Part shown: piece after piece, positions 16,868 to 49,109 of the stretch
Layout: each line of letters opens with the position of its first letter
Position numbering within the stretch: position 1 is the stretch's first letter
Assembly (NCBI GenBank): GCA_902565645.1
Contig: CACFFJ010000002.1
Span: forward strand, 39,105 to 103,104
Source of the DNA: an uncultured Candidatus Actinomarina sp.
GTDB taxonomy: Bacteria; Actinomycetota; Acidimicrobiia; Actinomarinales; Actinomarinaceae
Length of the DNA: 64,000 nt
Reading direction: 5' to 3'
Made by a program: the position numbers and the translations under genes
The notes under the pieces: model-generated
What the model was told of the DNA's origin: nothing
Seen by the model: the letters and a program-made list of their open reading frames with translations, nothing else
Databases searched by the model: none

Positions 16868-16907
16868 GGGAATACAGCAGAACGTATTTTACTTAATATA
16901 ATTATTC

Positions 16908-18497
16908 ATGATATTTAATAGTCCAAAAATTGGCACTTCTTATTTATTAGTTGGAATTTTTCTTATCTTTACAACTTTAATTTACAATATCCAAACCCCT
17001 GATCCTGCTCCAGTCGTTGCAGATCCTGACCCTGCTCCAGTCGTTGCAGATCCTGACCCTGCTCCAGTTACTCCGACTCCTGACCCAACTCCCGATCCAA
17101 CACCTGAGCCAGATGAAGACGATGATGACGACACTGGTAGTACAGTTACACCGCCTGTGGACCCAGCAGAGAGGCTATTCTCCTGGGACAATCCAGCAGG
17201 CATCTCACAAGCATTACTACATACTCTTATACCTGACACTACGTCGGAGTTCATCTCCACAGGCCTGTACGTCCATAATGACATTGAATGGGGTATGCCA
17301 CATGAAAACGATAATAGGGTTGGTTCGAACTATAAACTCACATACGAGTACACAAGCGTAGAAAGTGTTCCTTGGTCAGAGTCAGATATTCACAGTGAAG
17401 ACTGCTCAAGATATGCAGATAGTTGGGAAATCGAAGCATGGTGCGACGTAGTACTAAAAGATAGATCATATTGGGGAGTAACCCTTGAAGCGTTCACTGA
17501 AGGAAATGACACAATCGTACGACCAAGAAGCATCCGACAGCGGGGACTACCTAGCCTTAACTACGCAACTGGTTGGTACGACAGCTGGTGCTCCTCAAAC
17601 TATGAATCTCTCATAGTTACACATAACAGCCCAACAGTTACTAACAAAAACGCAGTACACCCAACGACAGGGTTGGAAGCACGCTTAGGATCATGCTCCC
17701 TTTCATACCAAGCAGACGTTGAAGCTAACTACATCGACCCTCTCATGGATGCGATTGTAAACATCATGCCTACAGATATTAAAAACTTCATTGATTGGTT
17801 CAATGTGGACATCAGTACTTCATGCCGACTTAGGGACTTACAAAAAGATCCACTGTCAGTAGAGTTCCTTCGAGAAGAAGAGTTCGGAACATACACGATG
17901 TGTGCTGGGCCTGTTTCTTACTTCGCTTGGGAACCTCACCAATGGATAAGTACTAACTCTGTTACATCTAACGGGGCAGCTGCATGGTACTTGAGCGGCG
18001 ATGATAGGTACTACGAACAAACCGCTATCAATGTTGGTGGTCACCTCGATACACGCCACTGGGACGGCCACACAGATACACCTAACATGAATGCTTTGAC
18101 AACCGCAGTAATGCACGAAGTTGCGCACGCTATTGACTCAGCTGTTGCTCAGAATCGCCTTCCTGCCTACTCAAACTCTTGTGGTGACTCACTAGGTTGG
18201 GGTGGTGGAGATTACAACTCTGCAAGAAGAGCACGCCTCACAGGATTCTCAAACAACAACAACATGAATCCGCTTAACCCTCTCGAAGTGGCTGCAGAAG
18301 TTCTCCGCAACTATGCAATGAACGAATCATGGGGAATTCCATTCGAAACTGGAAGATTCATACAACAAACTGGTACCTCTTACTACGCAGTAGGTGAAGA
18401 CATATACGATCAGCCTTACGCTAAAGACTGGGCTGCTTGGGTACTAAATGAAGGACTCTCTTGTGTCCAATCTCGACTGGATACGTTTGGCGGTTAA
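16908..18497 (+). CDS. secreted Cys-rich protein with N-terminal signal/anchor, PDPAPVVADP tandem repeats, a poly-Asp tract and a HExxH motif (putative zinc metallopeptidase of unassigned family)
   Basis: 529 aa. The hydrophobic N-terminus is followed by a Pro/Asp-rich repeat linker. HEVAH lies at ~aa 400 with a Glu ~45 aa downstream. It has >=10 Cys. The nucleotide composition is visibly GC-richer than its neighbours. Confidence 0.45.
   Translation: MIFNSPKIGTSYLLVGIFLIFTTLIYNIQTPDPAPVVADPDPAPVVADPDPAPVTPTPDPTPDPTPEPDEDDDDDTGSTVTPPVDPAERLFSWDNPAGISQALLHTLIPDTTSEFISTGLYVHNDIEWGMPHENDNRVGSNYKLTYEYTSVESVPWSESDIHSEDCSRYADSWEIEAWCDVVLKDRSYWGVTLEAFTEGNDTIVRPRSIRQRGLPSLNYATGWYDSWCSSNYESLIVTHNSPTVTNKNAVHPTTGLEARLGSCSLSYQADVEANYIDPLMDAIVNIMPTDIKNFIDWFNVDISTSCRLRDLQKDPLSVEFLREEEFGTYTMCAGPVSYFAWEPHQWISTNSVTSNGAAAWYLSGDDRYYEQTAINVGGHLDTRHWDGHTDTPNMNALTTAVMHEVAHAIDSAVAQNRLPAYSNSCGDSLGWGGGDYNSARRARLTGFSNNNNMNPLNPLEVAAEVLRNYAMNESWGIPFETGRFIQQTGTSYYAVGEDIYDQPYAKDWAAWVLNEGLSCVQSRLDTFGG
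17001..17075 (+). repeat. 30-nt coding tandem repeat (PDPAPVVADP) x ~2.5 within the 16908-18497 gene
   Basis: gatcctgaccctgctccagtcgttgca repeats directly in the sequence. Confidence 0.8.
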
Positions 18498-18540
18498 GAA
18501 GCATGATAAATTTGATGCTTACTTTTAATTATTTAGAAAG

Positions 18541-25839: not shown

Positions 25840-25911
25840 CTATTAATTTCTGTTAATCCCTCTGCTCTTAACTCGTTTGTTTGATTTTCTCTAGAAAAAC
25901 TCAATTGATAC

Positions 25912-26145
25912 TCAATCGTCTAATGGCGTCATCTCTTCCTTGCAGTGCTTAGGAGGATCATTCGCAACTACTGATTGAAAATTTACTGTTAATTCAGTTC
26001 CACAAGCTTCACATAAAAAAGATTGTGCTGTCTCTAATACGTCTGTTGGGTCTATCTCTGGAGGAGTATTTGCTAAAGACCCAATGGAGTTTTTTAAAAA
26101 TCGAAAAACAATAAACCCAATAAAGAGGGCAATTAAAATTTCCAT
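25912..26145 (-). CDS. hypothetical small protein (N-terminal TM, C-terminal CxxC...HC)
   Basis: 77-aa ORF; no family assigned. Confidence 0.3.
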   Translation of the reverse strand: MEILIALFIGFIVFRFLKNSIGSLANTPPEIDPTDVLETAQSFLCEACGTELTVNFQSVVANDPPKHCKEEMTPLDD

Positions 26146-26340
26146 TTATAAAGAAAGATATCTATAGACAGATATAAGTATTGCAATAATTATCCATGCA
26201 GTGGCAACACCTTTTGTCCCCATTTTTTTACTTGCAGCTTGTTTACGTTTTCTGGCTCTGTCTTGTATGGTGCCTTCAATTGATTCTTTTAATTCAGAAA
26301 GCTGCTCATCGTTTAAATCTTGAAAATCTTTTTTATCCAT
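26146..26340 (-). CDS. hypothetical small tail-anchored protein
   Basis: Start set at ATG 26340 (MDKKDFQDLNDEQLSELK...). The longer tracked ORF reaches 26418 and runs into the tRNA-Ala gene. Confidence 0.3.
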   Translation of the reverse strand: MDKKDFQDLNDEQLSELKESIEGTIQDRARKRKQAASKKMGTKGVATAWIIIAILISVYRYLSL

Positions 26341-26360
26341 ACAAATAGAATACCTTATCG

Positions 26361-26433
26361 TGGAGATGATGGGACTTGAACCCACGACCCCCTGCTTGCA
26401 AAGCAGGTGCTCTTCCAACTGAGCTACATCCCC
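26361..26433 (-). tRNA. tRNA-Ala (anticodon TGC)
   Basis: The reverse complement is GGGGATGTAGCTCAGTTGG...anticodon loop uuUGCaa...GGTTCAAGTCCCATCATCTCCA. Confidence 0.8.
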
Positions 26434-26522
26434 TCGCTTTTTATATTATGCCCTGTTTCTTAGTGTAAATGAAAAAATTTTAGAAATATTTCAATTTCTT
26501 TACTAATGTATATATGACGAAA

Positions 26523-26597
26523 GGGCCTATAGCTCAGCCTGGTTAGAGCGCATCCCTGATAAGGATGAGGTCGTTAGTTCAAATCTAACTAGGCCCA
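26523..26597 (+). tRNA. tRNA-Ile (anticodon GAT)
   Basis: GGGCCTATAGCTCAGCCTGGTTAGAGC...anticodon loop cuGAUaa...GGTTCAAATCTAACTAGGCCCA, followed by a T-run. Confidence 0.8.
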
Positions 26598-26602
26598 CTT
26601 TT

Positions 26603-28486
26603 TTAAGAATCAATCACATTTCTCTTAGCATGGTCTAACCAAAGTTCTCTTATTTCATCAGGCATTTCGTTTTCATCCAAACTAAAAATAAACCACTGCC
26701 CTTTTGAAGAGTCCTCTGAAGTAGGCGAATATCCCTCATCGTCTTTAGTCCAACTTCTTGGTGGTTGAGGTATGTTAAGGAAATATGGCTTAATTGGTAG
26801 AGCTTCAATTTTAGCTATTACCATCTTATGCATTTCAACTTCTTTAGTTTCAAATTCATCTAAACAACCACTTATGTGTTCTGGCCCAAAAGCTCTTTTA
26901 CCTATTCCTGGAAAACTACTCCAGGTAACTTTATCTCTTTGTACTATTTCCATAATTGCTTGAAATTGGATATCAAAAAATCTCTCTGTGTGCCTATAGT
27001 CACAAAAACCATCAAGTGTGAAGCTTACATGGTCAGCCTCAGAAAAGGAAAGATTCTTCCAGTGTTGACCGTAAGCTGGGTTCGTGTTGCTAGCTGGATA
27101 GTCTGGATCTCCGTCGTCGTAACTTATATAAGAAGCTACCCAAATAAAACCTTTAAAATATTTTTTTACTTCAGAAATAATTGCATCTAAATACCATTGA
27201 GCTAGGTCAACCTGTTCTGATGGCGATAAGTTGTACAAAAAAGAATATTGTGTAAATGGTACTTCAATTTCTGTATGTAATATACTATTCAGCTGAATCA
27301 TCTCTGCTTTTACTCTTTCAGCGGCCTTAGCCTTCATGGTGTAAGCAGGTATAGTCACATTAGCAACAAACTCCTTAAACTCTTCAACGTTGTTTAGTTT
27401 AATTTTGTAATCTTCAAGATCGCCTTGTACTACATATACATTGGAGCACATATCAAGATCAGCATAAATTCTTCGCCCTTTTTTCTTCTCAACTATGTAA
27501 GCAACTGTAGCCCCTCTTATTTCTTCATCCATCCAATAATTATCAAGTTGATACTTTCCATCAGAATCTAAAATTGCCTGAGGGCATCTCATACTGTCAT
27601 ATTCTTCATCATATTTTGGAGGCATTGACATATTCCCTAAAGATGGAGAAAAATTAAATTTTACTTCTGCAAAATATGGATCTGTCATAATTCTGTCCCA
27701 GAGTGGAGGAAATAGAACACTTTCACTGTTTCTAATGCCAAATGGGTTAGCATACATTGCATACCTTACTTGATTTGGCATTTCATATCTTTCCAAACCC
27801 TTTAAATGACATTCAAGTTGTTCCCAAGAAGGTCGATAATGATCTGCAAATTCTACAAATACATCAAGCGGAATACAGTGTCCTTCCCAAACTTCAGCTA
27901 AAGGGTGGGTTAGGGATTCCGGAGAAGCTCTAAAACATGGTTCCAATAATTTATATTCTTGCTCAGTAATCGTATGTGTTCCAGCTTTAATTGCCCTCAT
28001 AGTTTTTTTGCCTACTGCTTCAGCACCACATTTCCATTCATCAGGAGTGGGAATATAACCAAGAACAAACTGGTCCATCTTTGGGTCATCGGTTCTAATC
28101 CATCCACCTTGTATGGTACGAATATCTGCAATCCTCTCTTCAACGGTCATGTCGTCTACATCTTCATCTTTATCTTTTGGGCCTTCTTCATCTTTATCTT
28201 TTGGGCCTTCTTCATCTTTATCTTTTGGGCCTTCTACAAGGTCACATGTTTGAATCTTGTTTCTTTCATCTTGTGTAGGCTCTCTACTACCTGTTTGAAA
28301 TTCTCTTACAACTGAAACACCTAGCCTCTCATCCATGCACTCAAGGGAATATGGTAATTCATACAACTCTCTCCAGTTGCTCTCTTGATTAACAGAAGGT
28401 TTAGTTTCTTGCTGCTCTTCCTGGATGCTTGCTCCTGAGCCACCACACATAGTAAGAATGAGAAAAACTATTAAATATTTCTTCAT
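26603..28486 (-). CDS. large secreted Cys-rich protein (possibly a lipoprotein) with EGPKDKDE tandem repeats; function unknown
   Basis: 627 aa. Signal peptide MKKYLIVFLILTMCGGSGAS. The N-terminal two-Cys module (ECMDERLGVSVV...QTC) is related to the small proteins at 40.3-45.4 kb. Three 10-aa repeats follow. Confidence 0.5.
   Translation of the reverse strand: MKKYLIVFLILTMCGGSGASIQEEQQETKPSVNQESNWRELYELPYSLECMDERLGVSVVREFQTGSREPTQDERNKIQTCDLVEGPKDKDEEGPKDKDEEGPKDKDEDVDDMTVEERIADIRTIQGGWIRTDDPKMDQFVLGYIPTPDEWKCGAEAVGKKTMRAIKAGTHTITEQEYKLLEPCFRASPESLTHPLAEVWEGHCIPLDVFVEFADHYRPSWEQLECHLKGLERYEMPNQVRYAMYANPFGIRNSESVLFPPLWDRIMTDPYFAEVKFNFSPSLGNMSMPPKYDEEYDSMRCPQAILDSDGKYQLDNYWMDEEIRGATVAYIVEKKKGRRIYADLDMCSNVYVVQGDLEDYKIKLNNVEEFKEFVANVTIPAYTMKAKAAERVKAEMIQLNSILHTEIEVPFTQYSFLYNLSPSEQVDLAQWYLDAIISEVKKYFKGFIWVASYISYDDGDPDYPASNTNPAYGQHWKNLSFSEADHVSFTLDGFCDYRHTERFFDIQFQAIMEIVQRDKVTWSSFPGIGKRAFGPEHISGCLDEFETKEVEMHKMVIAKIEALPIKPYFLNIPQPPRSWTKDDEGYSPTSEDSSKGQWFIFSLDENEMPDEIRELWLDHAKRNVIDS
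28140..28250 (-). repeat. 30-nt coding tandem repeat x3 (EGPKDKDEEG) inside the 26603-28486 gene
   Basis: catctttatcttttgggccttcttcatctttatcttttgggccttcttcatctttatcttttgggcc is seen directly. Confidence 0.85.
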
Positions 28487-28563
28487 ACTTTAATCCTACA
28501 AAACCTTTTCAAAACTGGAGGTAAAGGGTACAAAAAAAAAGACTTTTTATGGTTTAATAAAGC

Positions 28564-29025
28564 ATGAGTAGTTTAAGAGATAAAATAAAAATGTCTGAAG
28601 AGGAATTGTCTTCATTCCTACAAAAACAAATATCTTTACAAATAGGAACTATAAACAAGGATGGAAGTCCCCACCTTACAACCATGTGGTATTTCTATGA
28701 TGGTGAAAACTTTATTTTTCATACTTATACAAAATCTCAAAAAATTATTAACTTAAAAAGAGATTCTAGAATTACTCTTTTAACAGAAGCTGGTAGTCAA
28801 TACTCCGACCTTCAGGGAATAATTGTTTATGGAAATGCAGAAATTATAAATGGAAAAGATAGCCTAGAAGAGGTAATCAGATACATGGAAATGGTTGGAG
28901 AGAAGTATGTTAAAGATGAAGATGGTTCTCAATATATAGAGGGTATGAAACTTCAAGCTCCTAAAAGATCTGTTGTTATTGTCAAGCCATCTAAATTTAT
29001 TTCCTGGGATCATACTAAAATTTAA
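28564..29025 (+). CDS. pyridoxamine 5'-phosphate oxidase-like FMN/F420-binding split-barrel protein
   Basis: 153 aa; ...GTINKDGSPHLTTMWYFYDGENFIFHT is the PNPOx-like (PPOX class) N-terminal pattern. Confidence 0.6.
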   Translation: MSSLRDKIKMSEEELSSFLQKQISLQIGTINKDGSPHLTTMWYFYDGENFIFHTYTKSQKIINLKRDSRITLLTEAGSQYSDLQGIIVYGNAEIINGKDSLEEVIRYMEMVGEKYVKDEDGSQYIEGMKLQAPKRSVVIVKPSKFISWDHTKI

Positions 29026-29029
29026 GATT

Positions 29030-30448
29030 ATGAAGAGATTACTGGCATTTGTTTTAATTTTTATTGTTTGTGGGGGTGAAAGTGAGTCTTTAAATTCTCC
29101 TGTGACTACAGAGAAAGAAATCACGACCACAACTGAAGTGGAGAAAGAAAAACTTCAAGAAACTGAACCTGATAGTGAAATAATCTCGGCTTTAAAAAAT
29201 GCTTCTGAAGAGGCAAAAAAATGTATAAATGATAGATGGCCAAATGGTGTCGAATCTGTTTTAGGAGGTTATATTCCTGGAGAAAATGAAACTGAGCTAA
29301 TTTATAACTGTCTTGACAGCTCAGGAGATGAGACTTTTGAATTAGAAAAAAAAGGTAGAGACGAACAATGGAGAGCTAGATGGGAAGGAAAATGCGAAGG
29401 AACTGGTCCTGTTATGTTTGCTAATTCGCCTATGAAAATTGAAGAGATAAATGTCCTTTTACCGTATGGACAAATAGTTGGAGGTCATATAACCCCAATT
29501 GACCATATGTACTTTTATTCCTTACCTGTCGGAAGATATACTTATGAAGTACGGGCAATCCAAGATGCTTTTATTTTTAATATAGAAATAAGGGAAGTCT
29601 CTGTTGAGTCTAATCAGACACAAGAGCCTGATTTCAGATTAGATATGGTTCACACATGCACTTTTGGGAGTTATTTTGACTTATTAACAAAATTAAGCCC
29701 TGAACTAGAAAAGAAGTGGGAAGAAAATAGAAATGAAAATGGCGATTTTTTAGGAGCCTATGTTAAAGCAGGAGAATTAATAGGCTATGTTGGTAATCAA
29801 AGTCTTGATTTCGGCGTTTACAACTATGATGAACCTTTATATTTTATAAATCCAGAAGCTTATGAAAGTGTCGAACCGTGGAAAATATATACTCATGATC
29901 CATTTCCTTATTTCCCAGAAAATATAAGAAATCAATTACTCAATAAAATGGTAAGAAAATCTGAACCTCGAGCTGGTCGGATTGATTATGATGTAGATGG
30001 AACTCTATCAGGAAATTGGTTTGAAGTTGGAACAAATTTTTATGAAGGAGTTAATAAAAACAAGTATTTTGAGGGACACTTCTCTTTATCATTGAACGAT
30101 ATCGACCCTAATTATTGGCAAATAGGAATAGGTTTTCTTGATGTATATGAAAACGTTTTTGTAATCCAAGGTAATCCACTGATCCCAACTGAAATCTCAG
30201 TAGATTCTGGGAAACAGATTTATGAATTATATTCTTTTGAAATCTATGTAGAAAATAATCCAAGTAAAAATTGGTTTAGAGAAGCTCATGATGAAAATGA
30301 TATTTTTGGTGTTCGATTGGCAGGCAAGAAAGGTTTTGTAATGCTTGAACTTATAGAGGAACAATTACTGCAACTAGAAGTTTTCTTAAATGTCGAAAAA
30401 GATTCAATAAATGAATTTACAGATAATTCGAGAGTTTATGAAAGATAG
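29030..30448 (+). CDS. secreted protein (possibly a lipoprotein), function unknown; possible degenerate LytM/M23-like region
   Basis: Start taken at MKRLLAFVLIFIVCGGESES (signal peptide); the tracked ORF begins 57 nt upstream. The N-terminal two-Cys module is KKCINDRWPNGVE...YNCLD. The mid-region KAGELIGYVGNQSLDFGV weakly resembles the M23 G-x-IG-x-G-x-TG block but lacks HxH. Confidence 0.45.
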   Translation: MKRLLAFVLIFIVCGGESESLNSPVTTEKEITTTTEVEKEKLQETEPDSEIISALKNASEEAKKCINDRWPNGVESVLGGYIPGENETELIYNCLDSSGDETFELEKKGRDEQWRARWEGKCEGTGPVMFANSPMKIEEINVLLPYGQIVGGHITPIDHMYFYSLPVGRYTYEVRAIQDAFIFNIEIREVSVESNQTQEPDFRLDMVHTCTFGSYFDLLTKLSPELEKKWEENRNENGDFLGAYVKAGELIGYVGNQSLDFGVYNYDEPLYFINPEAYESVEPWKIYTHDPFPYFPENIRNQLLNKMVRKSEPRAGRIDYDVDGTLSGNWFEVGTNFYEGVNKNKYFEGHFSLSLNDIDPNYWQIGIGFLDVYENVFVIQGNPLIPTEISVDSGKQIYELYSFEIYVENNPSKNWFREAHDENDIFGVRLAGKKGFVMLELIEEQLLQLEVFLNVEKDSINEFTDNSRVYER

Positions 30449-30459
30449 TTATTTTATAT

Positions 30460-40284: not shown

Positions 40285-40653
40285 TTAATCATCTAAGTTA
40301 TCTAAGGGGTTTTCTGGTTGACATACATCAAATGCAGATTGAACTTCATCTGATGTCCAGTCAACATCAGCATCCCTGAAAGCAAAGAAACCAAACTCTC
40401 CTGGAGTAGGGTCTGGAAAGTCAACCCCCTGTTCTCTCATGCATTGTGAAAATTCTAATGATGCATCAATTAAAGCTGCTTCAACTTCTGGGTCTAAGTC
40501 AAACTGTTCTGGCAAAGCTCTCCTTAGGATGTCCTCACAATTTGTGAAGGCTTCTTCAAAAACTTCTTCATCTTCAATATTAAGATTATTAAATTCGGGG
40601 TTCCCTTCAGAATCGAAAGTTGGGTCAGGAAAATTAATACCCTCTTCCCTCAT
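40285..40653 (-). CDS. small secreted two-Cys-module protein, paralog 1; the N-terminus probably extends upstream to ~40790 with a signal peptide but no canonical start codon
   Basis: Two copies of the module [AS]QCMRE[EQ]G[IV][DN]FPDPT ... C. The upstream in-frame sequence encodes KKIKRITLLLFISFCTIGGEETQGVATIETTTE, a lipoprotein-like signal plus the GVAT motif shared with the paralogs. Confidence 0.45.
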   Translation of the reverse strand: MREEGINFPDPTFDSEGNPEFNNLNIEDEEVFEEAFTNCEDILRRALPEQFDLDPEVEAALIDASLEFSQCMREQGVDFPDPTPGEFGFFAFRDADVDWTSDEVQSAFDVCQPENPLDNLDD

Positions 40654-40802
40654 ACATTGTGCAAATTCAAGTATTCCTTCTTCAAAAGTTAGTTCTTCTT
40701 CTGAAACTGTTATCTCGGTTGTTGTCTCAATAGTTGCGACGCCCTGTGTTTCTTCGCCACCTATTGTGCAAAAACTAATAAACAGTAGTAAAGTAATCCT
40801 TT

Positions 40803-41984
40803 TTATTTTCTTACTGCCTCCGCTGGTTGAATCTTTGATGCTTTTATTGCTGGATACACTCCTGAAAGAGCGCCTATTAGAAGTGCTAATAAAATTGCGC
40901 TTAAAACTTCTAAAGCTGGTATTGAGAAAACAATATTTGTATAGTTTGTATATCCAAGGGTGACTCCAACCCCAAGAAGCACCCCTATAAGACCCCCAGC
41001 CCCTGATAAAAGAATGCTTTCAAGTAAAAACTGGTACCTTATTTCTTTTCTTGTTGCCCCAATGGATCTCCTAACACCAATCTCCATTCTTCTTTCTAGT
41101 ACTGACATAACCATTACGTTCGCTATAGCTACACCTCCAACCAATAAGGCAACGGAGCCGAGTCCTAAAAGTAGATTTGTAAAAGCTACTTCTGCGGCTT
41201 CTTGAGCCTCAAGGGCATCAGAAGGTCTAGAAACACTTACCTGATCAGGATTTTCTGGATTCATTGATGGTGCTAAAACTTCAACAACATCTTCTACATA
41301 TGTTGGGTTGGCTCTTACATAAATTGTGGTTGGTTCTCTATCTACATTAAATAAAGTTTCTGCAACACCATAACCAATAAATACTGATCGATCTAGGTCT
41401 GGGTGAATCTTTAGTTCATCTAAAATTCCAACTACCCCAAACCACTCGTTTTCAATTAATATTTTTGTTGGTTTAGCAAGAGATGTTATTCCAAGTCTAG
41501 AAGCGGTAACGTTTCCTAAAACAGTTACTGGTATGTTGCTTAATCCTTTATCAATGAATCGACCTTCAGTAAGATTTCCTCCAACAACATCTAGTAACTC
41601 TGAGCTTGTTACGACGGTAGATATCCCTCCTCCTTCGAATTCAGATATGAAATCTGTCCGTCTCACCAACAAGTCTGTTTGAGTTGTCGATGTAACTTCT
41701 TCTACTGGACCTATTCTTTCAACCATTCCCAAAACTCCATCTGGCAACTTCTCTTGTGTTCCAAAAAATCCAGCCTGAGGAGATGCCTTAATCAGGTTTG
41801 TCCCAAGTGATTCTAAAGTTGCTAAAAGGTCTGCTCTTCCAGATGCAGAAATTCCTGTCACGGCAACTATTGCAGCTATACCTATTCCAATTCCTATGGA
41901 AGTTAAAGCCGCCCTTCCTCTTCGAGATTTTACTCCATACAGAGCAACAAAAAATAGGTCTTTTTTCTTTAGCTTCTGTTTCAT
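40803..41984 (-). CDS. MacB/FtsX-family ABC transporter permease with large extracytoplasmic domain
   Basis: 393 aa with an N-terminal TM, a ~220-aa periplasmic-type domain and a C-terminal FtsX 3-TM bundle. It is translationally coupled to the upstream ATPase. Confidence 0.8.
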   Translation of the reverse strand: MKQKLKKKDLFFVALYGVKSRRGRAALTSIGIGIGIAAIVAVTGISASGRADLLATLESLGTNLIKASPQAGFFGTQEKLPDGVLGMVERIGPVEEVTSTTQTDLLVRRTDFISEFEGGGISTVVTSSELLDVVGGNLTEGRFIDKGLSNIPVTVLGNVTASRLGITSLAKPTKILIENEWFGVVGILDELKIHPDLDRSVFIGYGVAETLFNVDREPTTIYVRANPTYVEDVVEVLAPSMNPENPDQVSVSRPSDALEAQEAAEVAFTNLLLGLGSVALLVGGVAIANVMVMSVLERRMEIGVRRSIGATRKEIRYQFLLESILLSGAGGLIGVLLGVGVTLGYTNYTNIVFSIPALEVLSAILLALLIGALSGVYPAIKASKIQPAEAVRK

Positions 41985-42665
41985 TTACGCTACAACTCTT
42001 CCATCTACTAATTTCACTACTTTTTTAAATTTTTTTGCGTGGTCTAGATTGTGTGTAATCATAATGATTGTTTTACCTTGCTTATTAAGCTCTTTAAGAA
42101 TGCTTAGAATATTATCTCCTGATTGTTTATCTAGGTTTCCTGTTGGCTCATCTGCTAAAACAAAGGCTGGGTTTTGAACAAGAGCTCTTGCTACAGCTAC
42201 CCTTTGCTGTTCTCCTCCAGATAATTCTTTAGGTAAATGTTCTAGTCTGTCTCCTAGCCCAACATCCTGCAATACCTTTTTTGCCCTCTTTAATCTCTCT
42301 TCTCTTTTGATTCCTTGGTACAACAAACCCTCTGCGACATTTTCCTGAGCTGTTAAACCAGGCAAAAGAAAAAAGCTTTGAAATATAAACCCAATCTTCT
42401 CTCCTCTGAATTTTGAAAGTTCGTTGTCTGACATGACAGAAACGTCCTGTCCTTCAATCTCTATAGCTCCTTCTGTAAGAGAATCCAGTAAGCCAATCAT
42501 ATTTAAAAGCGTTGATTTGCCACTTCCCGACTGTCCAACTATTGAAACTAAATCTCCTTCTTTTATGTCTAGAGAAATGTTATCAACCGCTTTTACCGGT
42601 GGAGGTCCTTCATAAACTTTCGAAATGTTTTTTAAAGATATTACAGTTTTCGCTTTTGTTTTCAT
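41985..42665 (-). CDS. ABC transporter ATP-binding protein (MacB/LolD type)
   Basis: GQSGSGKSTLLN Walker A, LSGGEQQRVAVARAL signature and Walker B DEPTGNLD; 226 aa. Confidence 0.85.
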   Translation of the reverse strand: MKTKAKTVISLKNISKVYEGPPPVKAVDNISLDIKEGDLVSIVGQSGSGKSTLLNMIGLLDSLTEGAIEIEGQDVSVMSDNELSKFRGEKIGFIFQSFFLLPGLTAQENVAEGLLYQGIKREERLKRAKKVLQDVGLGDRLEHLPKELSGGEQQRVAVARALVQNPAFVLADEPTGNLDKQSGDNILSILKELNKQGKTIIMITHNLDHAKKFKKVVKLVDGRVVA

Positions 42666-44236
42666 CTTGGTACAACTACTAGCTGTCCTTCTTTTATGTT
42701 TCCAACTATTTCAACAAACCCGTCTGTAAATACACCTATCTCTACTCCTACGTATGTTGTCTCTATCCCTGATTCGCCCTTAAATATTTGGTCTTCTGGG
42801 TCTCCATTGTAAATTTCTACTGCGTAACCACCCTCAGCAAGAGCAAGCAAGGCATTCACGGGTACATAAAGCACATCTTCTGATACCTCTGTTACAACAA
42901 AGACTTTAACCGGTGCTTGGTCGTATACGTCTATTTCCGCTGAGTTAAGAACATCTAGCTTTACTTGAATAAAGTTTCCAGCTTGTGTCTCCGTTACTAC
43001 TTGATCAATAAATTTAATTACAGTATTAACCCTCTCGTCTGTTGGTAGCTCAACCTCAACTTCTTCACCTAAAGTAACGGTGTCTTGATCCGCTGCTGGA
43101 AGCCAAAATAAAACTTCGACTCCTGTCGACGAAGTGTTGTAAATCTGACCATTTATAGTTATAGCTCCTCCAACTTTATTTATATATGTTCCGACAATCA
43201 ATTCTGTATCGGACGCATAAGCATTTGTAGGACTAAAGGTTTCGGACTTTGCTGCTAGTTCTAAATCTTGTAGCTCTTCTTTAGCTTTTTCTAATTCAGC
43301 CTTTTCATCTACCCCTTCGTTGTATGCCTCAAGTGCATCATCGTATGCTTTTTGGGCTGTTTCTATTGCTAAGGCTTCGGTAGCGTCAATTCCCGATTCC
43401 TTCCCTTCCTCTAGTGCTTTAATTCTCTTCTGTTTTTCAATTGATTGTTCTAGGTCTTCTATCTCAGCGTCTAAAGTTCCAGCCGCTTTTTTTTCTTTTG
43501 TTTCAGGATTAGTTTCGTCTCTTAATAGTGATAATGACTGCTCGGAAGCTTCAATTGATGCATCTGCCGCTTTCCAGGCTGAATTTTCTTCTGTTGCTGC
43601 TTCATTTGCTTCGTCTAATTTTTTCTTTTTATCATTAACCTGAGCCAACGTTACTCCACCTGAAGCAATTGTCTCTTCAATAGCCTCTATCTCTTCCTTC
43701 TTTGCGTTAATAGCTACTTGTTCTGTAGGGGTTATCTCAGATTTTGTTTCAATACCGTAGTCTATGTATAAATTATTTAGCATTTGAGATGTTGTTTCGT
43801 CAAAGTTTTCATCCGGAGTAAACCCATCGTCTGAATATCCAAGGTTGACCAATGCTTCTTCAATTTGTTTAATATCGGGACCATCGTCTGAGTTTAAATC
43901 AAGCGTCCTGTAGAAAGGAATCGAACCTTGTAAGAGGATAACTGGTTTATTGTCAACAGCGTATAATACTTGTCCGAAGTTGATAATTGTTCCTTCTTCT
44001 GGAAGATAAGTTATAACTCCAGTAATTGAAGAATTTAATATCGATTTGTCAACTTGACTAAGTGTTCCACTGTATTCTTCTTTTTTTGATAAATCTCCTT
44101 TTGAAATCTTGACTGTTGTAAGCTCAAGGGTTTTTTCAGAACCCTGAGATGTTGTTTTTTGAGATCCGAAATAGTAGAAAGATGCTCCTGTAAATATAAG
44201 AATAAGTAAAGCAATTAAATTTTTTCTTGATAACAT
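42662..44236 (-). CDS. HlyD-like membrane-fusion/periplasmic adaptor protein with long coiled-coil and putative peptidoglycan-binding-like segment
   Basis: N-terminal TM (LIALLILIFTGASFYYF), a ~150-aa Glu/Ala/Lys-rich coiled coil and a C-terminal beta-rich domain. The segment IKQIEEALVNLGYSDDGFTPDE resembles a PG-binding motif. Confidence 0.6.
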   Translation of the reverse strand: MLSRKNLIALLILIFTGASFYYFGSQKTTSQGSEKTLELTTVKISKGDLSKKEEYSGTLSQVDKSILNSSITGVITYLPEEGTIINFGQVLYAVDNKPVILLQGSIPFYRTLDLNSDDGPDIKQIEEALVNLGYSDDGFTPDENFDETTSQMLNNLYIDYGIETKSEITPTEQVAINAKKEEIEAIEETIASGGVTLAQVNDKKKKLDEANEAATEENSAWKAADASIEASEQSLSLLRDETNPETKEKKAAGTLDAEIEDLEQSIEKQKRIKALEEGKESGIDATEALAIETAQKAYDDALEAYNEGVDEKAELEKAKEELQDLELAAKSETFSPTNAYASDTELIVGTYINKVGGAITINGQIYNTSSTGVEVLFWLPAADQDTVTLGEEVEVELPTDERVNTVIKFIDQVVTETQAGNFIQVKLDVLNSAEIDVYDQAPVKVFVVTEVSEDVLYVPVNALLALAEGGYAVEIYNGDPEDQIFKGESGIETTYVGVEIGVFTDGFVEIVGNIKEGQLVVVPR

Positions 44237-44269
44237 ATTTTTTAATTTTAACCTCTGTTGTTCGGAATG

Positions 44270-44842
44270 CTAAGGGGCTTTTTCAAAAGTATCATTTTCT
44301 TCTTGGCATTCTTGTATATATTCTTTTATATCTTCTCTTTTCCCTCCAACTTCACTTAGGTTTAGTTTTGCGTTGTCTTGTGTTGGGTCGGCGATGTCGA
44401 TTCCCTTTTCTCGTAAGCATTGAGCTAGTTTTAAATTTGAGTCAAAACGTCTTGCCATTTCTTCTGGGTTTTCTGACTGCCTATCTGGCCATAGTTCATT
44501 ATCTTGTATGCACTCTTCTACATCTTTCATTATGGATGACCTCTCTTCTTTCCCTTTGTTTCTTGAAGTCATCTGATCTATTGTTGATTTTAAATCTTCA
44601 ATATCAAACGGTGTTTGTAGATCGTACCCTTTCTCGTTTAAGCAGCTGGTTAAAACAATTGGATAATCTTCTTCTGTAAGAACTTCCTTTTCATTGTCTG
44701 CTGCGCTGTTTTCACTAATTGTTGCTACTCCGATTCCATTATTAGATGAACAAGCTATATAAAGAAAAGAGGTAGTTAATATACAAATCTTTAATTTTTT
44801 CTTATGGATCATTTTCTTCTCTAAGGTCCTCTGGGACTTCAT
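44270..44842 (-). CDS. small secreted two-Cys-module protein (possibly a lipoprotein), paralog 2
   Basis: Signal peptide MIHKKKLKICILTTSFLYIACSS, GIGVATISEN, then two modules (SCLNEKGYDLQTP...EECIQDN; AQCLREKGIDIADPT...QECQEEN). Confidence 0.5.
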   Translation of the reverse strand: MKSQRTLEKKMIHKKKLKICILTTSFLYIACSSNNGIGVATISENSAADNEKEVLTEEDYPIVLTSCLNEKGYDLQTPFDIEDLKSTIDQMTSRNKGKEERSSIMKDVEECIQDNELWPDRQSENPEEMARRFDSNLKLAQCLREKGIDIADPTQDNAKLNLSEVGGKREDIKEYIQECQEENDTFEKAP

Positions 44843-45392
44843 ATCCGTTTTCCGTTATACATTCTCGAACCAGTGCTCTTAGGTCTTTTGCAGAAATTAC
44901 CCCTGTTACAACAAGTGGTGGGAGAGTATCTCTGAGACCAGTTTCACTTGTTGGGTCTGATACGTCTAATCCTTTTTCTCGTAAACATTGTGCTACCTCT
45001 AGCTCTGCGTCTAATATTGCTGCTTGTTGTTCTGGTGTTGCGTTTTCTCTTGCATCAAGCGGTATGTTGTTTTCTTCTGCACATTTTTCAATTATTGAAT
45101 AAAGCTCTTGTTGTTCAGCCTGTGTCATTTGAATAAAAATTGGGGTTAATATTCTTCTCAAGTCTCCTGGTTTTTTTGGGTCTTCAAGCTCATAATTATT
45201 ATCTCTTATACATTGTGCAAGCAATAACTCGGCGTCAACCCAGGAGAGCTCATTTGTATTTACCGTGGTAGTTGTTGATTCCATGTTTTCGAGGGTTGCT
45301 ACCCCAACACCTTCTTCTTTATCGTTATTAAAAAACGAACAAGAAGAAACTAAAAGAAAAACAAAAAAAAGTAAAAGTTTTTTCTTTCTCAT
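44802..45392 (-). CDS. small secreted two-Cys-module protein (possibly a lipoprotein), paralog 3
   Basis: Signal peptide MRKKKLLLFFVFLLVSSCS, GVGVATLEN, then modules AQCIRDNNYELEDP...EKCAEEN and AQCLREKGLDVSDPT...RECITEN. Its 3' end overlaps paralog 2 by 41 nt. Confidence 0.5.
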   Translation of the reverse strand: MRKKKLLLFFVFLLVSSCSFFNNDKEEGVGVATLENMESTTTTVNTNELSWVDAELLLAQCIRDNNYELEDPKKPGDLRRILTPIFIQMTQAEQQELYSIIEKCAEENNIPLDARENATPEQQAAILDAELEVAQCLREKGLDVSDPTSETGLRDTLPPLVVTGVISAKDLRALVRECITENGYEVPEDLREENDP

Positions 45393-47038: not shown

Positions 47039-47947
47039 CTAACTCCCGCTTTGGTAAACAGATATAAAGCCTAAATAGGAGTTTGCAATTTCTTCTACGG
47101 CTTCTTCTCTCGACTTGCTGCCTTCATGCCAACCTTTTAGTGACTCCCAAAATATAGACCTGCCTATTGCAAAACCCTTATATCCATCTACAGAAGAACC
47201 TGCTCTAAGCCACTCATTAACTTTCTCATCGTTTGCACCTCGTCCAAGGACAACCGCGATAACGTCTTCTCTTCCTCCGTTTTTTATTGATTCTGCAATC
47301 TTTTCACAGTCTTCTTTCGTATCAAGACCCTCTATTTTCCATATGTCAGGGTCGGCTCCTCTTTCCCTCATTTCTTCAACAACCTTAACAGCTAGGTTTG
47401 GTCTAATTTCAGCATCATATCTTGCTTGATCTCCATCAACAGTCTCTAACTGTTCCTCGGTTGCGGGAACTAAAAATTCTAATAGAAACTTCTTTTCATT
47501 ATCAATTATCCAGTCAGAAAGAGTTTTTATTCTGCTACCTTGTATTTCTCTAGCTTCTTCTTCATCGTCGGGATTCCACCTAACCAATATTTTGATAAAG
47601 TCTGCACCAACTTCATTTATCTTTTCACCAAAGTCTTCTCCGTATTCAAAATCAAATATACTTTGGCCAGATTTTTCTACTGGTGCAGCAAATTTTATTC
47701 CATTTTCAATTGCTTTTTTTTGAACGTCTATTCCAAATTGCTCATCTACAAGTATTGCTGGGTCACCACCACTAATCCCTTTTTCTTTGGCTGAGAGGAA
47801 TCCTTCAAAAATTATATTTTTCATTTCTGAAACTCTTAAGACCTCTTCTTTTTCTGGTGGTCTTGCTTCTACGCCAAGTAGGCCTTTGGTTAGTGTTCCT
47901 CTGTGGTCAAAGGCTAAAATATATAAATCGTTTGGATAACCCTTCAT
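47039..47947 (-). CDS. class I aldolase of the LacD/DUF2090 (tagatose-1,6-bisphosphate aldolase-like) family
   Basis: ILAFDHRGTL (compare LacD ALAFDQRGAL), FIKILVRW and AIGRSIFWE blocks parallel LacD. It is operonic with pfk, suggesting it acts as a fructose/tagatose-bisphosphate aldolase. Confidence 0.5.
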   Translation of the reverse strand: MKGYPNDLYILAFDHRGTLTKGLLGVEARPPEKEEVLRVSEMKNIIFEGFLSAKEKGISGGDPAILVDEQFGIDVQKKAIENGIKFAAPVEKSGQSIFDFEYGEDFGEKINEVGADFIKILVRWNPDDEEEAREIQGSRIKTLSDWIIDNEKKFLLEFLVPATEEQLETVDGDQARYDAEIRPNLAVKVVEEMRERGADPDIWKIEGLDTKEDCEKIAESIKNGGREDVIAVVLGRGANDEKVNEWLRAGSSVDGYKGFAIGRSIFWESLKGWHEGSKSREEAVEEIANSYLGFISVYQSGS

Positions 47948-48933
47948 AGTTTAATCTTAAGCTTTTTCTTTTCTCTTTGTGTGTAAAATCTTGATACAAC
48001 AAAGACAAGCAACACTAAAAGCACAATAACTTGAGCTAAAAGCGGAATAACTTGATCACTTTGTGTTTTTTGTTCTTGTTCAAAATATTTATCTGAATAA
48101 ATAATTCCTGGATCCTGTTTTGAGTCAATAATTTCGTTTAAAACATTTAACAAATCAACTGTGTTTATACCCCAGTTGTTAGCTAGATTTTCGTCTAAAA
48201 AATATATATTATTACTTTTTACAGCAATTAGGTTTTTCCAAGATGTTCTTGTAGAAAGGTCTTTATTTAAATAGTCAGAATGACCCACAACTATTAAATC
48301 GGGGTTTGATTCTATTATTTTTTCCTCAGAAATTTCTGGATATCCGCTGCTGTATGGATCTTCTAATTCGTTAGCAATGTTTTTAACACCTAATAGGTTG
48401 TATATTTCTCCAATAAATGAGTTTTTATTTACTGTATATATTCCATAGGTGTAACCAATTTCATGAAAAATTTTAATATCTTTAAATTTTGTGTTTTGAA
48501 GAATCGTGCTTACGTCCTCTCTCATGGAAGAGATTAGGTTCTTTGCCTCGTTCTCTTTATGAATTAAATTTCCGATTATTTCAATTTGTGAATATACGTC
48601 TTCAAAGTTCCTTGCAGGAGGAAGTAGTGCATATTTCATTTCCTTCCTTTCTAAATCGGTGACTATTTCATTAATATCAAAAGCTATTAATACTACATCT
48701 GGATTTAGTTCTAAAATTTCATCTGTGGTTGCTGTAAATGCATCTATTTTCTTAACTGTTTCTGGGGTTTGTGAAAAAGAATCAGCACCCACCAGCAGCT
48801 CACCTCCTCCAAGAGCTTGTACAATCTCTGTGTGTGTTGTGGATAGACTAACTATCTTTAACTTATCTACTTTCTCTGAGTTAAGTGAACATGCTGAAAG
48901 AACCAAAGTGAGAAATAATAGCTTCTTTTTCAT
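47944..48933 (-). CDS. BtuF/FepB-type (TroA-fold) ABC substrate-binding lipoprotein, with an additional C-terminal TM anchor
   Basis: Lipoprotein signal MKKKLLFLTLVLSACS (start ATG 48933 with AGGAAA upstream; the track starts at GTG 48951). KIVSLSTTHTEIVQALG ... LVGADSFS is the BtuF-like N-lobe. A cobalamin riboswitch lies upstream. Confidence 0.65.
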   Translation of the reverse strand: MKKKLLFLTLVLSACSLNSEKVDKLKIVSLSTTHTEIVQALGGGELLVGADSFSQTPETVKKIDAFTATTDEILELNPDVVLIAFDINEIVTDLERKEMKYALLPPARNFEDVYSQIEIIGNLIHKENEAKNLISSMREDVSTILQNTKFKDIKIFHEIGYTYGIYTVNKNSFIGEIYNLLGVKNIANELEDPYSSGYPEISEEKIIESNPDLIVVGHSDYLNKDLSTRTSWKNLIAVKSNNIYFLDENLANNWGINTVDLLNVLNEIIDSKQDPGIIYSDKYFEQEQKTQSDQVIPLLAQVIVLLVLLVFVVSRFYTQREKKKLKIKL

Positions 48934-48974
48934 AATTTCCTTTCTCACCACAAGAAGAAAGCTGGGAACCCCAA

Positions 48975-49090
48975 CCCTTCTCTCGAGGTTTGTTGTTTCA
49001 AAAACAAAAAAGTCGACCTGACTTATCTTTCGAATTACAGTTGCGGGACAGTCTCAGATTTTCACTGACTTCGCTTCTTTGCTTTATTCG
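48975..49090 (-). promoter_or_regulatory. cobalamin (B12) riboswitch
   Basis: The minus-strand sequence ...AGUGAAAAUCUGAGACUGUCCCGCAACUGUAAuucgaaagauAAGUCAGGucgac contains the conserved GGUG.AA.UCC...CCCGC..CUGUAA core and the AGUCAGG B12 box, followed by a U-rich terminator-like expression platform. Confidence 0.65.
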
Positions 49091-49109
49091 TTAGAAAAAG
49101 TGTAGCAAA

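Follow-up and report, generated by a model that had tools for sequence, protein, structure and literature searches.

Strain-variable genes for predicted surface lipoproteins with enzyme-type domains beside tRNA-Ile in a Candidatus Actinomarina-like genome

Introduction

In the Ca. Actinomarinales, tRNA-Ile has been named as a recombination hot spot whose published locus carries ABC-transporter genes, and the known flexible island of these bacteria concerns the cell envelope (fGI1, 43-79 kb, low GC) (Lopez-Perez et al. 2020, PMC7771536). Here, we analyzed a 64,000-nt stretch (hereafter the window; 34.6% GC) of contig CACFFJ010000002.1 (assembly GCA_902565645.1, positions 39,105 to 103,104, forward strand) from an uncultured Candidatus Actinomarina sp., in which genes for two predicted lipoproteins of 627 and 472 residues, referred to as A627 and B472, occupy a slot beside tRNA-Ile. 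The gene content of this slot differed between strains with nearly identical flanks, and the reading that we favor, with moderate confidence, is that its genes encode surface-tethered, enzyme-type lipoproteins swapped as single-gene cassettes at a recombination-prone site.

GyrB of the window was 90% identical to GyrB proteins labeled Candidatus Actinomarina, and further products of the window are CrgA (PF06781, 61 bits), a PASTA-domain Ser/Thr kinase (PknB), a PP2C phosphatase, and GyrA. Because of its GyrB and CrgA, the host is identified by sequence as Ca. Actinomarina-like, with the window representing the origin-proximal region of its genome.

A strain-variable slot beside tRNA-Ile

The main features of the slot are listed below.

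26360-26433, minus strand: tRNA-Ala(tgc), detected by ARAGORN and Rfam (72.7 bits); belongs to the crgA / 77-aa / tRNA-Ala / tRNA-Ile block
26523-26598, plus strand: tRNA-Ile(gat), detected by ARAGORN and Rfam; fixed left border of the variable slot
26603-28486, minus strand: A627 gene, an open reading frame (ORF) of 627 aa whose stop lies 4 nt from the tRNA-Ile 3' end
28564-29025, plus strand: PNPOx-like flavin-binding protein, 153 aa (Pfam PNPOx_N, 68 bits); ends 4 nt before B472
29030-30448, plus strand: B472 gene, 472 aa; ATG at 29030, 4 nt after the PNPOx stop
25869-30452, no strand: segment of divergence or replacement relative to the sister strain L024 (window compared with L024 and L037 by blastn)

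The initial annotation had placed a 627-aa ORF next to a divergent tRNA-Ala(TGC)/tRNA-Ile(GAT) pair, and both the ORF listing and the tRNA predictions agreed with it. The second gene was also where it had been described, at 29030-30448, but it encodes 472 rather than 491 residues: the longer product would require a TTG start at 28973, inside the PNPOx gene, and all B472 homologues begin at an MKR or MKK equivalent to the ATG at 29030. The PNPOx and B472 genes are probably co-transcribed. The pair, with its 4-nt gap, was also found in L003, L016, L018, and L009, and PNPOx was missing from L017 and L025.

The flanks of L024 (122-kb contig) and L037 were 98.5% and 95.9% identical to the window, respectively (blastn), whereas the PNPOx-A627-tRNAs-77-aa segment of L024 was only 86.5% identical, with 79% amino acid identity in A627. 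The B472 gene (29025-30452) had no counterpart in either strain, and an unrelated lipoprotein gene of 423 aa was found in its place on the other strand (L024:8202-9473, plus strand; L037:5390-6910; no Pfam match). Gene orders beside tRNA-Ile, compared across loci, revealed different lipoprotein sets between tRNA-Ile and the nucleoside deoxyribosyltransferase gene, as follows (identity to the window in brackets).

L009 (98.85%, nucleotide): window order, one repeat unit fewer
L022, L023, and L029 (A627, 91-94%): an extra 296-aa lipoprotein (F296) between PNPOx and A627
L021 (A627, 95%): a PQ-loop gene in place of PNPOx
L019 (A627, 79%): F296, A627, tRNA-Ile
L025 (A627, 72%): B472, A627, tRNA-Ile, without PNPOx
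L026 (A627, 96%): A627, then the M23-motif lipoprotein F478 where the tRNA would be
L017 (B472, 62%): tRNA-Ile, then directly B472
L018 (B472, 74%): tRNA-Ile, F296, PNPOx, B472
L003 (B472, 71%): PNPOx-B472 separated from the tRNAs by 7 kb of other genes, rhodopsin and transhydrogenase among them

The borders of the slot were far from variable. The divergent tRNA-Ala/tRNA-Ile pair had equal spacing in L003, L009, L017, L018, L021, L023, and L024, and the order HhH-GPD glycosylase / crgA / 77-aa / tRNA-Ala / tRNA-Ile was unchanged in every related contig recovered. Because this block recurs across related contigs, the tRNA pair is better regarded as an ancestral scaffold than as the footprint of an inserted element; ileT and alaT also lie near crgA and gyrA in Mycobacterium tuberculosis. 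The right border is formed by a conserved nucleoside-deoxyribosyltransferase block.

The locus had been proposed as a variable surface or island region, and this stood in part: gene content and repeat number differ among relatives, but composition is ordinary and the tRNA pair sits in a conserved block. Measured against 59 window genes, the GC content (z = +0.78 and -0.36) and third-position GC content (z = +0.46 and -0.96) of the two lipoprotein genes, like their codon usage, were within 1 standard deviation, and their codon-usage divergence was ordinary; atypical GC or codon bias is thus not a trait of this locus. No integrase was found among the genes at 22.9-33.3 kb, all of which were accounted for, no partial copy of either end of tRNA-Ile (up to 3 mismatches) occurred elsewhere in the window, and no direct repeats flanked the genes. 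With neither an integrase, a tRNA-fragment repeat, nor a compositional shift, the idea of a tRNA-integrated island was abandoned. Promoter and terminator scanning at the locus stayed below shuffle expectation.

A shared plan of signal, tether, and two-cysteine module

A627 comprises a signal peptide, a first module, a disordered acidic repeat linker, a short beta element, a second module, a third Cys pair, and a C-terminal domain. B472 comprises a signal peptide, a Thr/Glu-rich linker, a divergent two-Cys stretch, an M23-like core, and a beta-rich C-terminal domain. The features of their N-terminal parts are listed below.

28445-28486, minus strand: A627 signal peptide with lipobox-like LTMC (Cys14), read from the sequence
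28241-28339, minus strand: A627 module copy 1, residues 50-82 (C50...C81); hidden Markov model (HMM) score 52.9 bits, E 9e-16
28161-28235, minus strand: perfect tandem repeat of 24 nt x 3.1 with 100% matches (Tandem Repeats Finder, TRF), encoding EGPKDKDE x3 in the disordered linker
27932-28030, minus strand: A627 module copy 2, residues 153-185 (C153...C184); HMM score 35.6 bits, E 2e-10
29222-29311, plus strand: B472 two-Cys stretch, residues 65-94 (C-x28-C), by hhalign; possibly a divergent module copy

Both proteins are predicted lipoproteins, with a basic n-region, a hydrophobic stretch, and Cys14-Gly-Gly (...LILTM-C14-GG in A627 and ...IFIV-C14-GG in B472), position -1 being a non-canonical Met or Val, respectively. 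Most A627 homologues carry a canonical L-[AVS]-[GA]-C lipobox (e.g., LAAC, LVGC, and LSGC), ISAC, VVAC, and similar lipoboxes also occur among homologues, and at least 90% of the homologues in both families retain the lipobox Cys. This signal anatomy bore out the earlier suggestion that both proteins are secreted and possibly lipoproteins; the CGG motif, once singled out as unusual, is indeed present in both, but is simply the lipobox Cys followed by a Gly/Ser-rich mature start. The label Cys-rich fits A627 modestly (1.75% Cys against a window mean of 0.72%) and B472 hardly (1.06%). Across 21 sequences, 10 of the 11 Cys residues of A627 were invariant, the exception being the lipobox Cys14, with its conservation of at least 90%.

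The A627 linker contains a perfect tandem repeat, as the initial annotation had noticed, but its unit is 24 nt (EGPKDKDE, 3.1 copies) and not 30 nt (EGPKDKDEEG, three copies), the longer reading having arisen from overlapping 30-mers spaced 24 nt apart. Repeat-copy variation among relatives was found as well: L009 has one 24-nt unit fewer (2 copies), so that the number differs between strains that are 98.9% identical. Linker length also varies among A627 homologues, and in the AlphaFold2 (AF2) model the predicted local distance difference test (pLDDT) score falls below 50 at residues 84-110.

An HMM seeded with A627 residues 44-84 and iterated over A627 relatives converged on 143 instances of a 33-residue module with the consensus aCldaaLGadafreIqsGkRpPTaeElqkieaC (C-x30-C). 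Pfam holds no model for this module, which is previously undescribed. Over the 506 stop-to-stop ORFs of the window, the HMM matched A627 alone, twice; an exhaustive profile search recovered tandem arrays of four to six modules in other secreted or membrane-anchored proteins of diverse bacteria. Each A627 copy was modeled as three short helices (pLDDT 74-85 for copy 1), and the module is probably a disulfide-clamped three-helix unit.

A two-Cys stretch does follow the signal in each protein, as had been noted, but A627 has two module copies and not one. In B472, the module HMM found no match at E<=10. The alignment of residues 65-94 with the canonical module by hhalign ran from Cys to Cys over the full span (P 3.6e-4, probability 37%). 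A divergent module copy in B472 is plausible since three observations agree: its predicted helix-helix-loop-helix pattern (AF2) is similar to that of the A627 modules, the B472-family protein P0116 carries a canonical-looking copy at the equivalent position, and the C-x28-C spacing is common to the B472 stretch and the module copy of the L024 replacement lipoprotein.

The replacement lipoprotein itself follows the same design. The 423-aa protein of L024 has a lipobox, a linker with SQEQE x3, one significant module copy, and a repeat-rich C-terminal domain, and its L037 homologue has two module copies (E 2.2e-8). Because the replacement shares the lipobox, linker, and module, the slot appears to exchange lipoprotein cassettes of one plan. 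The recurring DG-x-x-R-[LM]-[YF] motifs of this protein suggest a beta-propeller.

The initial annotation had assigned A627, B472, and three small proteins at 40-45 kb to one secreted family of five members, and this was refuted. The three small lipoproteins (40285-45392, minus strand), which flank a MacB_PCD/FtsX permease, an ABC ATPase, and a 524-aa protein without a Pfam match, each carry two to three copies of a C-[LIM]-R-[ED]-x-G-[VIL]-D-x-x-D-P...C module and form a family of their own (mutual BLASTP E 1.6e-22 to 1e-9). They resemble A627 and B472 in being lipoproteins with paired Cys and in the start C-[LMI]-[RN]-[ED]. Their module, however, spans about 45 residues (about 40 between the Cys) with G-[VIL]-[DE]-x-x-D-P after the first Cys, whereas the 33-residue module has x30 spacing with G...G-x-R-x-P-T-x-x-E. 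BLASTP of the small proteins against A627 and B472 gave a best E of 0.12, the module HMM did not match them at E<=10, and in hhalign their module reached probabilities of 0.9% (canonical module) and 0.3% (B472 stretch).

Enzyme-type domains

The two large domains are as follows.

26606-27889, minus strand: A627 C-terminal domain, about residues 200-627; predicted (beta/alpha) barrel with invariant Glu406
29447-29839, plus strand: B472 M23/LytM-like beta domain, about residues 140-270 (Foldseek)

No recognizable family had been reported for either protein, and this held: A627, B472, and their neighbors were scanned with Pfam, NCBIfam, PADLOC, and PHROGs, which returned nothing above threshold for A627 or B472, PDB sequences matched neither protein even in profile searches, and a literature search on the two families found nothing specific. 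For A627, none of the 23 homologues (48-95% identity) is named, a Pfam scan of the protein with 33 superfamily members and 10 distant relatives gave no match, PDB sequence searches with its profiles, including a 34-sequence profile, returned only noise, and an exact look-up of its sequence found no record.

The AF2 model of A627 (pLDDT 78.7; predicted template modeling [pTM] score, 0.78) shows a C-terminal domain of about 420 residues with seven to eight beta-alpha units (pLDDT mostly 80-97). Its best PDB match in Foldseek was the glycoside hydrolase (GH) family 113 mannanase 4cd7 (E 4.9e-4; target-normalized TM-score, 0.43), and further matches were to GH53, GH26/5, GH1, OYE, and generic TIM barrels, so that the domain is weakly likened, by its model, to a clan GH-A barrel. 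An exhaustive HMM search from A627 yielded 107 relatives, many of them proteins of about 400 aa that match the C-terminal domain alone. In a 34-sequence superfamily alignment (down to 21% identity), K334, A386, E406, Q430, and G446 were invariant, and in distant members W-x-[IV]-[GS]-E follows E406 by about 120 residues, on the strand of GH-A nucleophiles. Because of this pattern, the superfamily looks like an undescribed GH-A-type family. Within the A627 clade, the nucleophile position falls inside an insertion and is occupied by K, K, Y, D, D, or N, where distant relatives have Glu; a clade-specific insertion of about 30 residues carries the invariant R577, W579, and E584. The expected pair of acid/base and nucleophile Glu residues on strands 4 and 7 was therefore not found in the clade, in which the beta7 nucleophile is not conserved and E406 could be the acid/base. 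Judging from the alignment, the A627 clade would either be non-catalytic or employ other residues.

B472 has more than 181 homologues. Its core (about 340-350 residues, from C122) recurs at 40-55% identity in more than 100 proteins, which come from Dehalococcoidia, SAR202, other Chloroflexota, and a Thermoplasmatota archaeon; almost all of them have lipoprotein signals, and their N-terminal extensions differ. In the AF2 model (pLDDT 81; pTM, 0.71), the core has a predicted M23 beta-sheet fold: Foldseek against the PDB returned Csd2, EnvC, ShyA, LasA, SpoIIQ, and LytM domains (E 1e-4 to 1e-2, probability 1.0), and matches in BFVD, a viral structure library, were phage M23 endopeptidases. Sequence methods gave no such link, with nothing in Pfam at E<=1 (no PF01551), an hhalign probability of 3.3% for the core against E. 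coli MepM, and a pairwise alignment z-score of 1.0 against shuffles.

The zinc-binding and catalytic motifs of M23 peptidases are HxxxD and HxH. Since neither hhalign nor the pairwise alignment to MepM was significant, these motifs were mapped onto B472 by hand: HxxxD corresponds to H153-ITPI-D158-H159 (H153-x4-D158), the His of 'Y-x-H-L' to D217, and HxH to S258-L-D260, with S258 not invariant. H153, D158, H159, H208, C210, D217, and D260 were invariant in 56 sequences (down to 36% identity), as was H350 in the family. The description of an M23-like glycine block without catalytic His was thus right about the glycine block, the fold, and the missing HxH, but overlooked the invariant H153, H159, H208, and H350. 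Because these residues are invariant, the altered site looks like a conserved one, unlike the random decay of regulatory LytM domains.

Two B472-family proteins, P0115 and P0123 (locus L014:763-2565), consist of an N-terminal GH113-like TIM barrel fused to the B472 core (Pfam GH113 22.3 bits, cut-off 27), with the motifs GNELDKP and IISEFGWD (GNE and SEFG); no signal peptide is visible at their called start. This fusion links the B472 core to a barrel of the type that the A627 domain is likened to.

Distribution across phyla and recurrent neighbors

Both families are shared with marine Chloroflexota; most homologues carry no taxon label. Among one-genome-per-species GTDB contigs, A627 relatives were found only in five metagenome-assembled genomes of SAR202/Chloroflexota/Dehalococcoidia (53-69% identity), A627 was absent from related genera, and metagenome loci spanned 34-57% GC. 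A627 was 67-69% identical to the copies of L004 and L005 (SAR202/Chloroflexota), whereas the housekeeping dCTP deaminase on the same contigs was 54% identical; because of this difference, the sequences point to lateral transfer of A627 between Actinomarina and Chloroflexota. That L004 and L005 (35% GC) are mis-binned Actinomarina contigs was considered and rejected, as two independent studies binned them as Chloroflexota, synteny between them and the window is absent, and they have the divergent dCTP deaminase. Phage carriage was likewise rejected, since scans of viral contigs matched neither the A627 nor the B472 family.

In 5 of about 9 independent contexts (Ile, Lys, Ala-ggc, Arg-tct, and Phe/Gly), a tRNA was found no more than about 1.1 kb from the A627-family gene, a small count in which the independence of contexts was our own judgement; with a chance proximity of 4-10% per gene, this gives P ~1e-4 under crude assumptions. 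The lipoprotein genes also recur in pairs: A627 with B472 in the window, L009, and L025; A627 with F296 in L019, L022, L023, L029, and the Dehalococcoidia locus L006; and B472 with F296 in L018 and the Dehalococcoidia loci L012 and L013. F296, an M23-motif lipoprotein, and F478 have sub-threshold PF01551 matches (13.6-21.4 bits).

Three further loci deserve description. In the SAR202-type contigs L001 and L006, the A627 homologues share only 61% identity, against 82-92% for the neighboring genes, again a divergent allele between conserved flanks, as in Actinomarina. In the Chloroflexota lineage closest to the window copy, the gene immediately downstream of the A627 homologue encodes a sulfatase whose C-terminal domain is of the N-sulphoglucosamine-sulphohydrolase type (L005:11820-13364, minus strand; L020). 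Around the B472 homologue of the Dehalococcoidia locus L012 (1457-10654), there is a run of secreted proteins of no known family, which includes a weak HExxH metallopeptidase match, a DAO-type flavoenzyme, an F296 member, and a distant relative of the M23-like half of B472 with a Pacifastin-like Cys motif.

Interpretation and alternatives

We propose that a small flexible slot near the origin, between the crgA/tRNA-Ala/tRNA-Ile block and the nucleoside-deoxyribosyltransferase block, would harbor genes sharing one plan: a lipobox signal, a disordered acidic or Thr-rich tether, at least one 33-residue module, and a large enzyme-type domain. Tether length would change through slippage of the 24-nt repeat, and the module may act as a small disulfide-stabilized spacer or binding unit. 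The proteins would be attached to the membrane's outer face by a flexible tether, binding or hydrolyzing extracellular polymers; our best guess for the substrates is extracellular glycan, glycopeptide, or peptidoglycan-like material. The cassettes may have been exchanged via recombination in the conserved flanks and not by recent integrase-mediated insertion. The invariant polar residues of the B472 family, and E406 in the A627 superfamily, argue for function.

Several points weigh against this reading. The slot shows no compositional anomaly, integrase, or att-like repeat, and B472 is closer to core than to accessory, except in L024 and L037, because its position is kept in several Actinomarinales genera (L003, L016, L017, and L018). 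A627 may not be a glycosidase, since its clade has no conserved acidic residue at the putative nucleophile position, and the resemblance of its model to GH113/GH-A is weak (E ~5e-4; TM-score, 0.43). B472 lacks the M23 HxH motif, its module assignment is not significant by HMM, and no sequence method ties either family to a known one.

Some of these points are shared with the main rival, which we consider unlikely, namely that A627 and B472 are non-enzymatic surface proteins (adhesins, receptors, or envelope structure) built on dead enzyme folds, their variability being driven by phage or grazer pressure on epitopes. The A627 clade without a conserved nucleophile and B472 without HxH would fit such a role, as many LytM domains are non-catalytic, including those of EnvC and Csd2, the top B472 matches; a tether made of a variable-number repeat, an allele replaced between near-identical strains, the divergent A627 homologue amid conserved neighbors in SAR202, and the envelope-related flexible island of Actinomarinales (PMC7771536) are also consistent with it. 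However, the invariance of many polar residues at 36-50% identity, in a pocket-type motif pattern, is unusual for structural or decoy proteins, and the GH113-like domain fused to some B472 relatives keeps the catalytic-type motifs NE and SEFG.

Less likely again is that these are housekeeping autolysins, with B472 and perhaps A627 remodeling the cell's own peptidoglycan during growth or division as essentially core genes near crgA, pknB, and PP2C. M23/LytM is the classic fold of peptidoglycan endopeptidases and their regulators, B472 keeps its place by the crgA-tRNA block in four Actinomarinales lineages (62-89% identity), and its composition matches the genome. Against this stand the strain with 98.5%-identical flanks that carries an unrelated lipoprotein instead of B472, the absence of A627 from related genera, and the replacement of the M23 metal-binding and catalytic His in B472. 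Moreover, both families are common in SAR202, which lacks peptidoglycan synthesis (bioRxiv 10.1101/2021.08.23.457424), and B472 also occurs in Thermoplasmatota archaea; SAR202 and the near-identical strain without B472 together make the cell's own wall an unlikely substrate.

A five-member secreted family sharing a C-[LMI]-[RND]-[ED]-x-G-[VI] module on a tRNA-integrated island is highly improbable, for although the five share paired Cys, an actual or probable lipoprotein status, and a superficial resemblance of the motif at the first Cys, the negative BLASTP, HMM, and hhalign comparisons, the differing Cys spacing, and the lack of an integrase, tRNA repeat, or compositional shift contradict it.

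Our favored reading of swapped surface lipoproteins could be extended, in a speculative and on the whole unlikely form, to a joint one. The module would be a new portable anchor or stalk domain marking swappable surface hydrolases across phyla (Actinomarina, SAR202, and possibly MGII archaea), the B472 core would be a new Asp-for-His catalytic variant of M23 working with GH113-like barrels on dissolved organic matter derived from glycopeptide or peptidoglycan, and strain-specific cassettes would partition substrates within a population.

Few bacteria in the ocean are as abundant as Ca. Actinomarina and SAR202, and their exposed proteins are almost unstudied. The locus offers three testable objects: a widespread, undescribed extracellular module; a large marine family with a predicted M23 fold and changed metal-binding and catalytic residues; and a TIM-barrel family whose GH-A-like catalytic pattern one clade appears to have lost. 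The locus also shows single surface-protein genes being exchanged between 98%-identical strains, and apparently between phyla, in genomes regarded as very stable. As hydrolases, the proteins would bear on the use of polymeric organic matter by streamlined cells; otherwise, they are candidate phage-exposed surface proteins.

Other features of the window

One further gene belongs to the conserved tRNA block.

25912-26145, minus strand: 77-aa protein between crgA and tRNA-Ala, with a membrane helix and CxxC...HC residues; without a Pfam match

The 77-aa protein was 83-100% identical across all Actinomarina-type loci. Between its gene and crgA, L024 (12588-14069, plus strand) and L018 (454-1905) carry a gene for a GlpD-like flavin adenine dinucleotide (FAD) dehydrogenase that is absent from the window. 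A listed 90-aa ORF (26146-26418, minus strand), which overlaps tRNA-Ala and is identical in L024, was rejected as almost certainly a mechanical artefact of ORF listing.

A segment at 16872-18522 is wholly absent from L024, where its flanks are 96-99% identical. It contains, directly beside the tRNA-Arg/Ser x3 cluster, a 529-aa gene (ORF 16908-18497, plus strand; 45.8% GC, z = +3.4 against the window genes). The product combines a membrane anchor at its N terminus with PDPAPVVAD repeats (27 nt x 2.6), an acidic stretch, 8 Cys, and HEVAH (HExxH), and has no Pfam match. This gene is a better candidate for recent tRNA-adjacent acquisition than A627 or B472. An adenosylcobalamin (AdoCbl; B12) riboswitch (48967-49099, minus strand; 53.3 bits, gathering threshold 50) lies upstream of the genes at 47039-48951.

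The third small lipoprotein of the 40-45 kb group (40285-40806, minus strand) was listed as 122 aa from the ATG at 40653, and an in-frame upstream extension encodes a lipoprotein signal (KKIKRITLLLFISFC...). This extension contains no ATG, GTG, or TTG; an ATA at 40806-40804, preceded by GGAGG at a distance of 10 nt, overlaps with the TAA stop of the FtsX permease (ATAA). The explanation would be either a mutated start codon or translational coupling with a non-canonical start.

Comparison with known systems

With M23/LytM proteins (Csd2, 5j1k; EnvC, 4bh5/8tzl; ShyA, 6ue4; LasA, 3it5; PF01551), B472 shares a predicted beta-sheet core at residues of about 140-270, a 'VKAG-x-x-IGYVG' segment that matches the glycine block, and a predicted extracytoplasmic location. 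It differs in H153-x4-D158 for HxxxD, D217 for His, and S258-L-D260 for HxH, as mapped by hand, and in an extra conserved C-terminal part of about 200 residues that includes the beta-rich domain.

A627 is similar to clan GH-A, in particular the GH113 beta-mannanase AaManA (4cd7 and 3civ), in its predicted beta/alpha repeats and in the invariant E406 on an internal strand, and its distant relatives share the spacing of about 120 residues from Glu to Glu that corresponds to the 4/7 arrangement. However, A627 has no Asn before E406, an insertion at the nucleophile position, its own insertion of about 30 residues, and no Pfam, CAZy-type, or PDB sequence match.

The slot as a whole resembles the flexible islands of Ca. 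Actinomarinales (PMC7771536; 'Actinomarina, resolved', bioRxiv 10.64898/2026.04.03.716425) in its strain-variable content beside a tRNA and in its predicted cell-surface cargo. In contrast to fGI1, it measures only about 2-7 kb (1-3 genes), its GC is normal, and in this strain it lacks a direct repeat of a tRNA fragment. Unlike the published tRNA-Ile locus with its ABC-transporter genes, it carries genes for lipoproteins.

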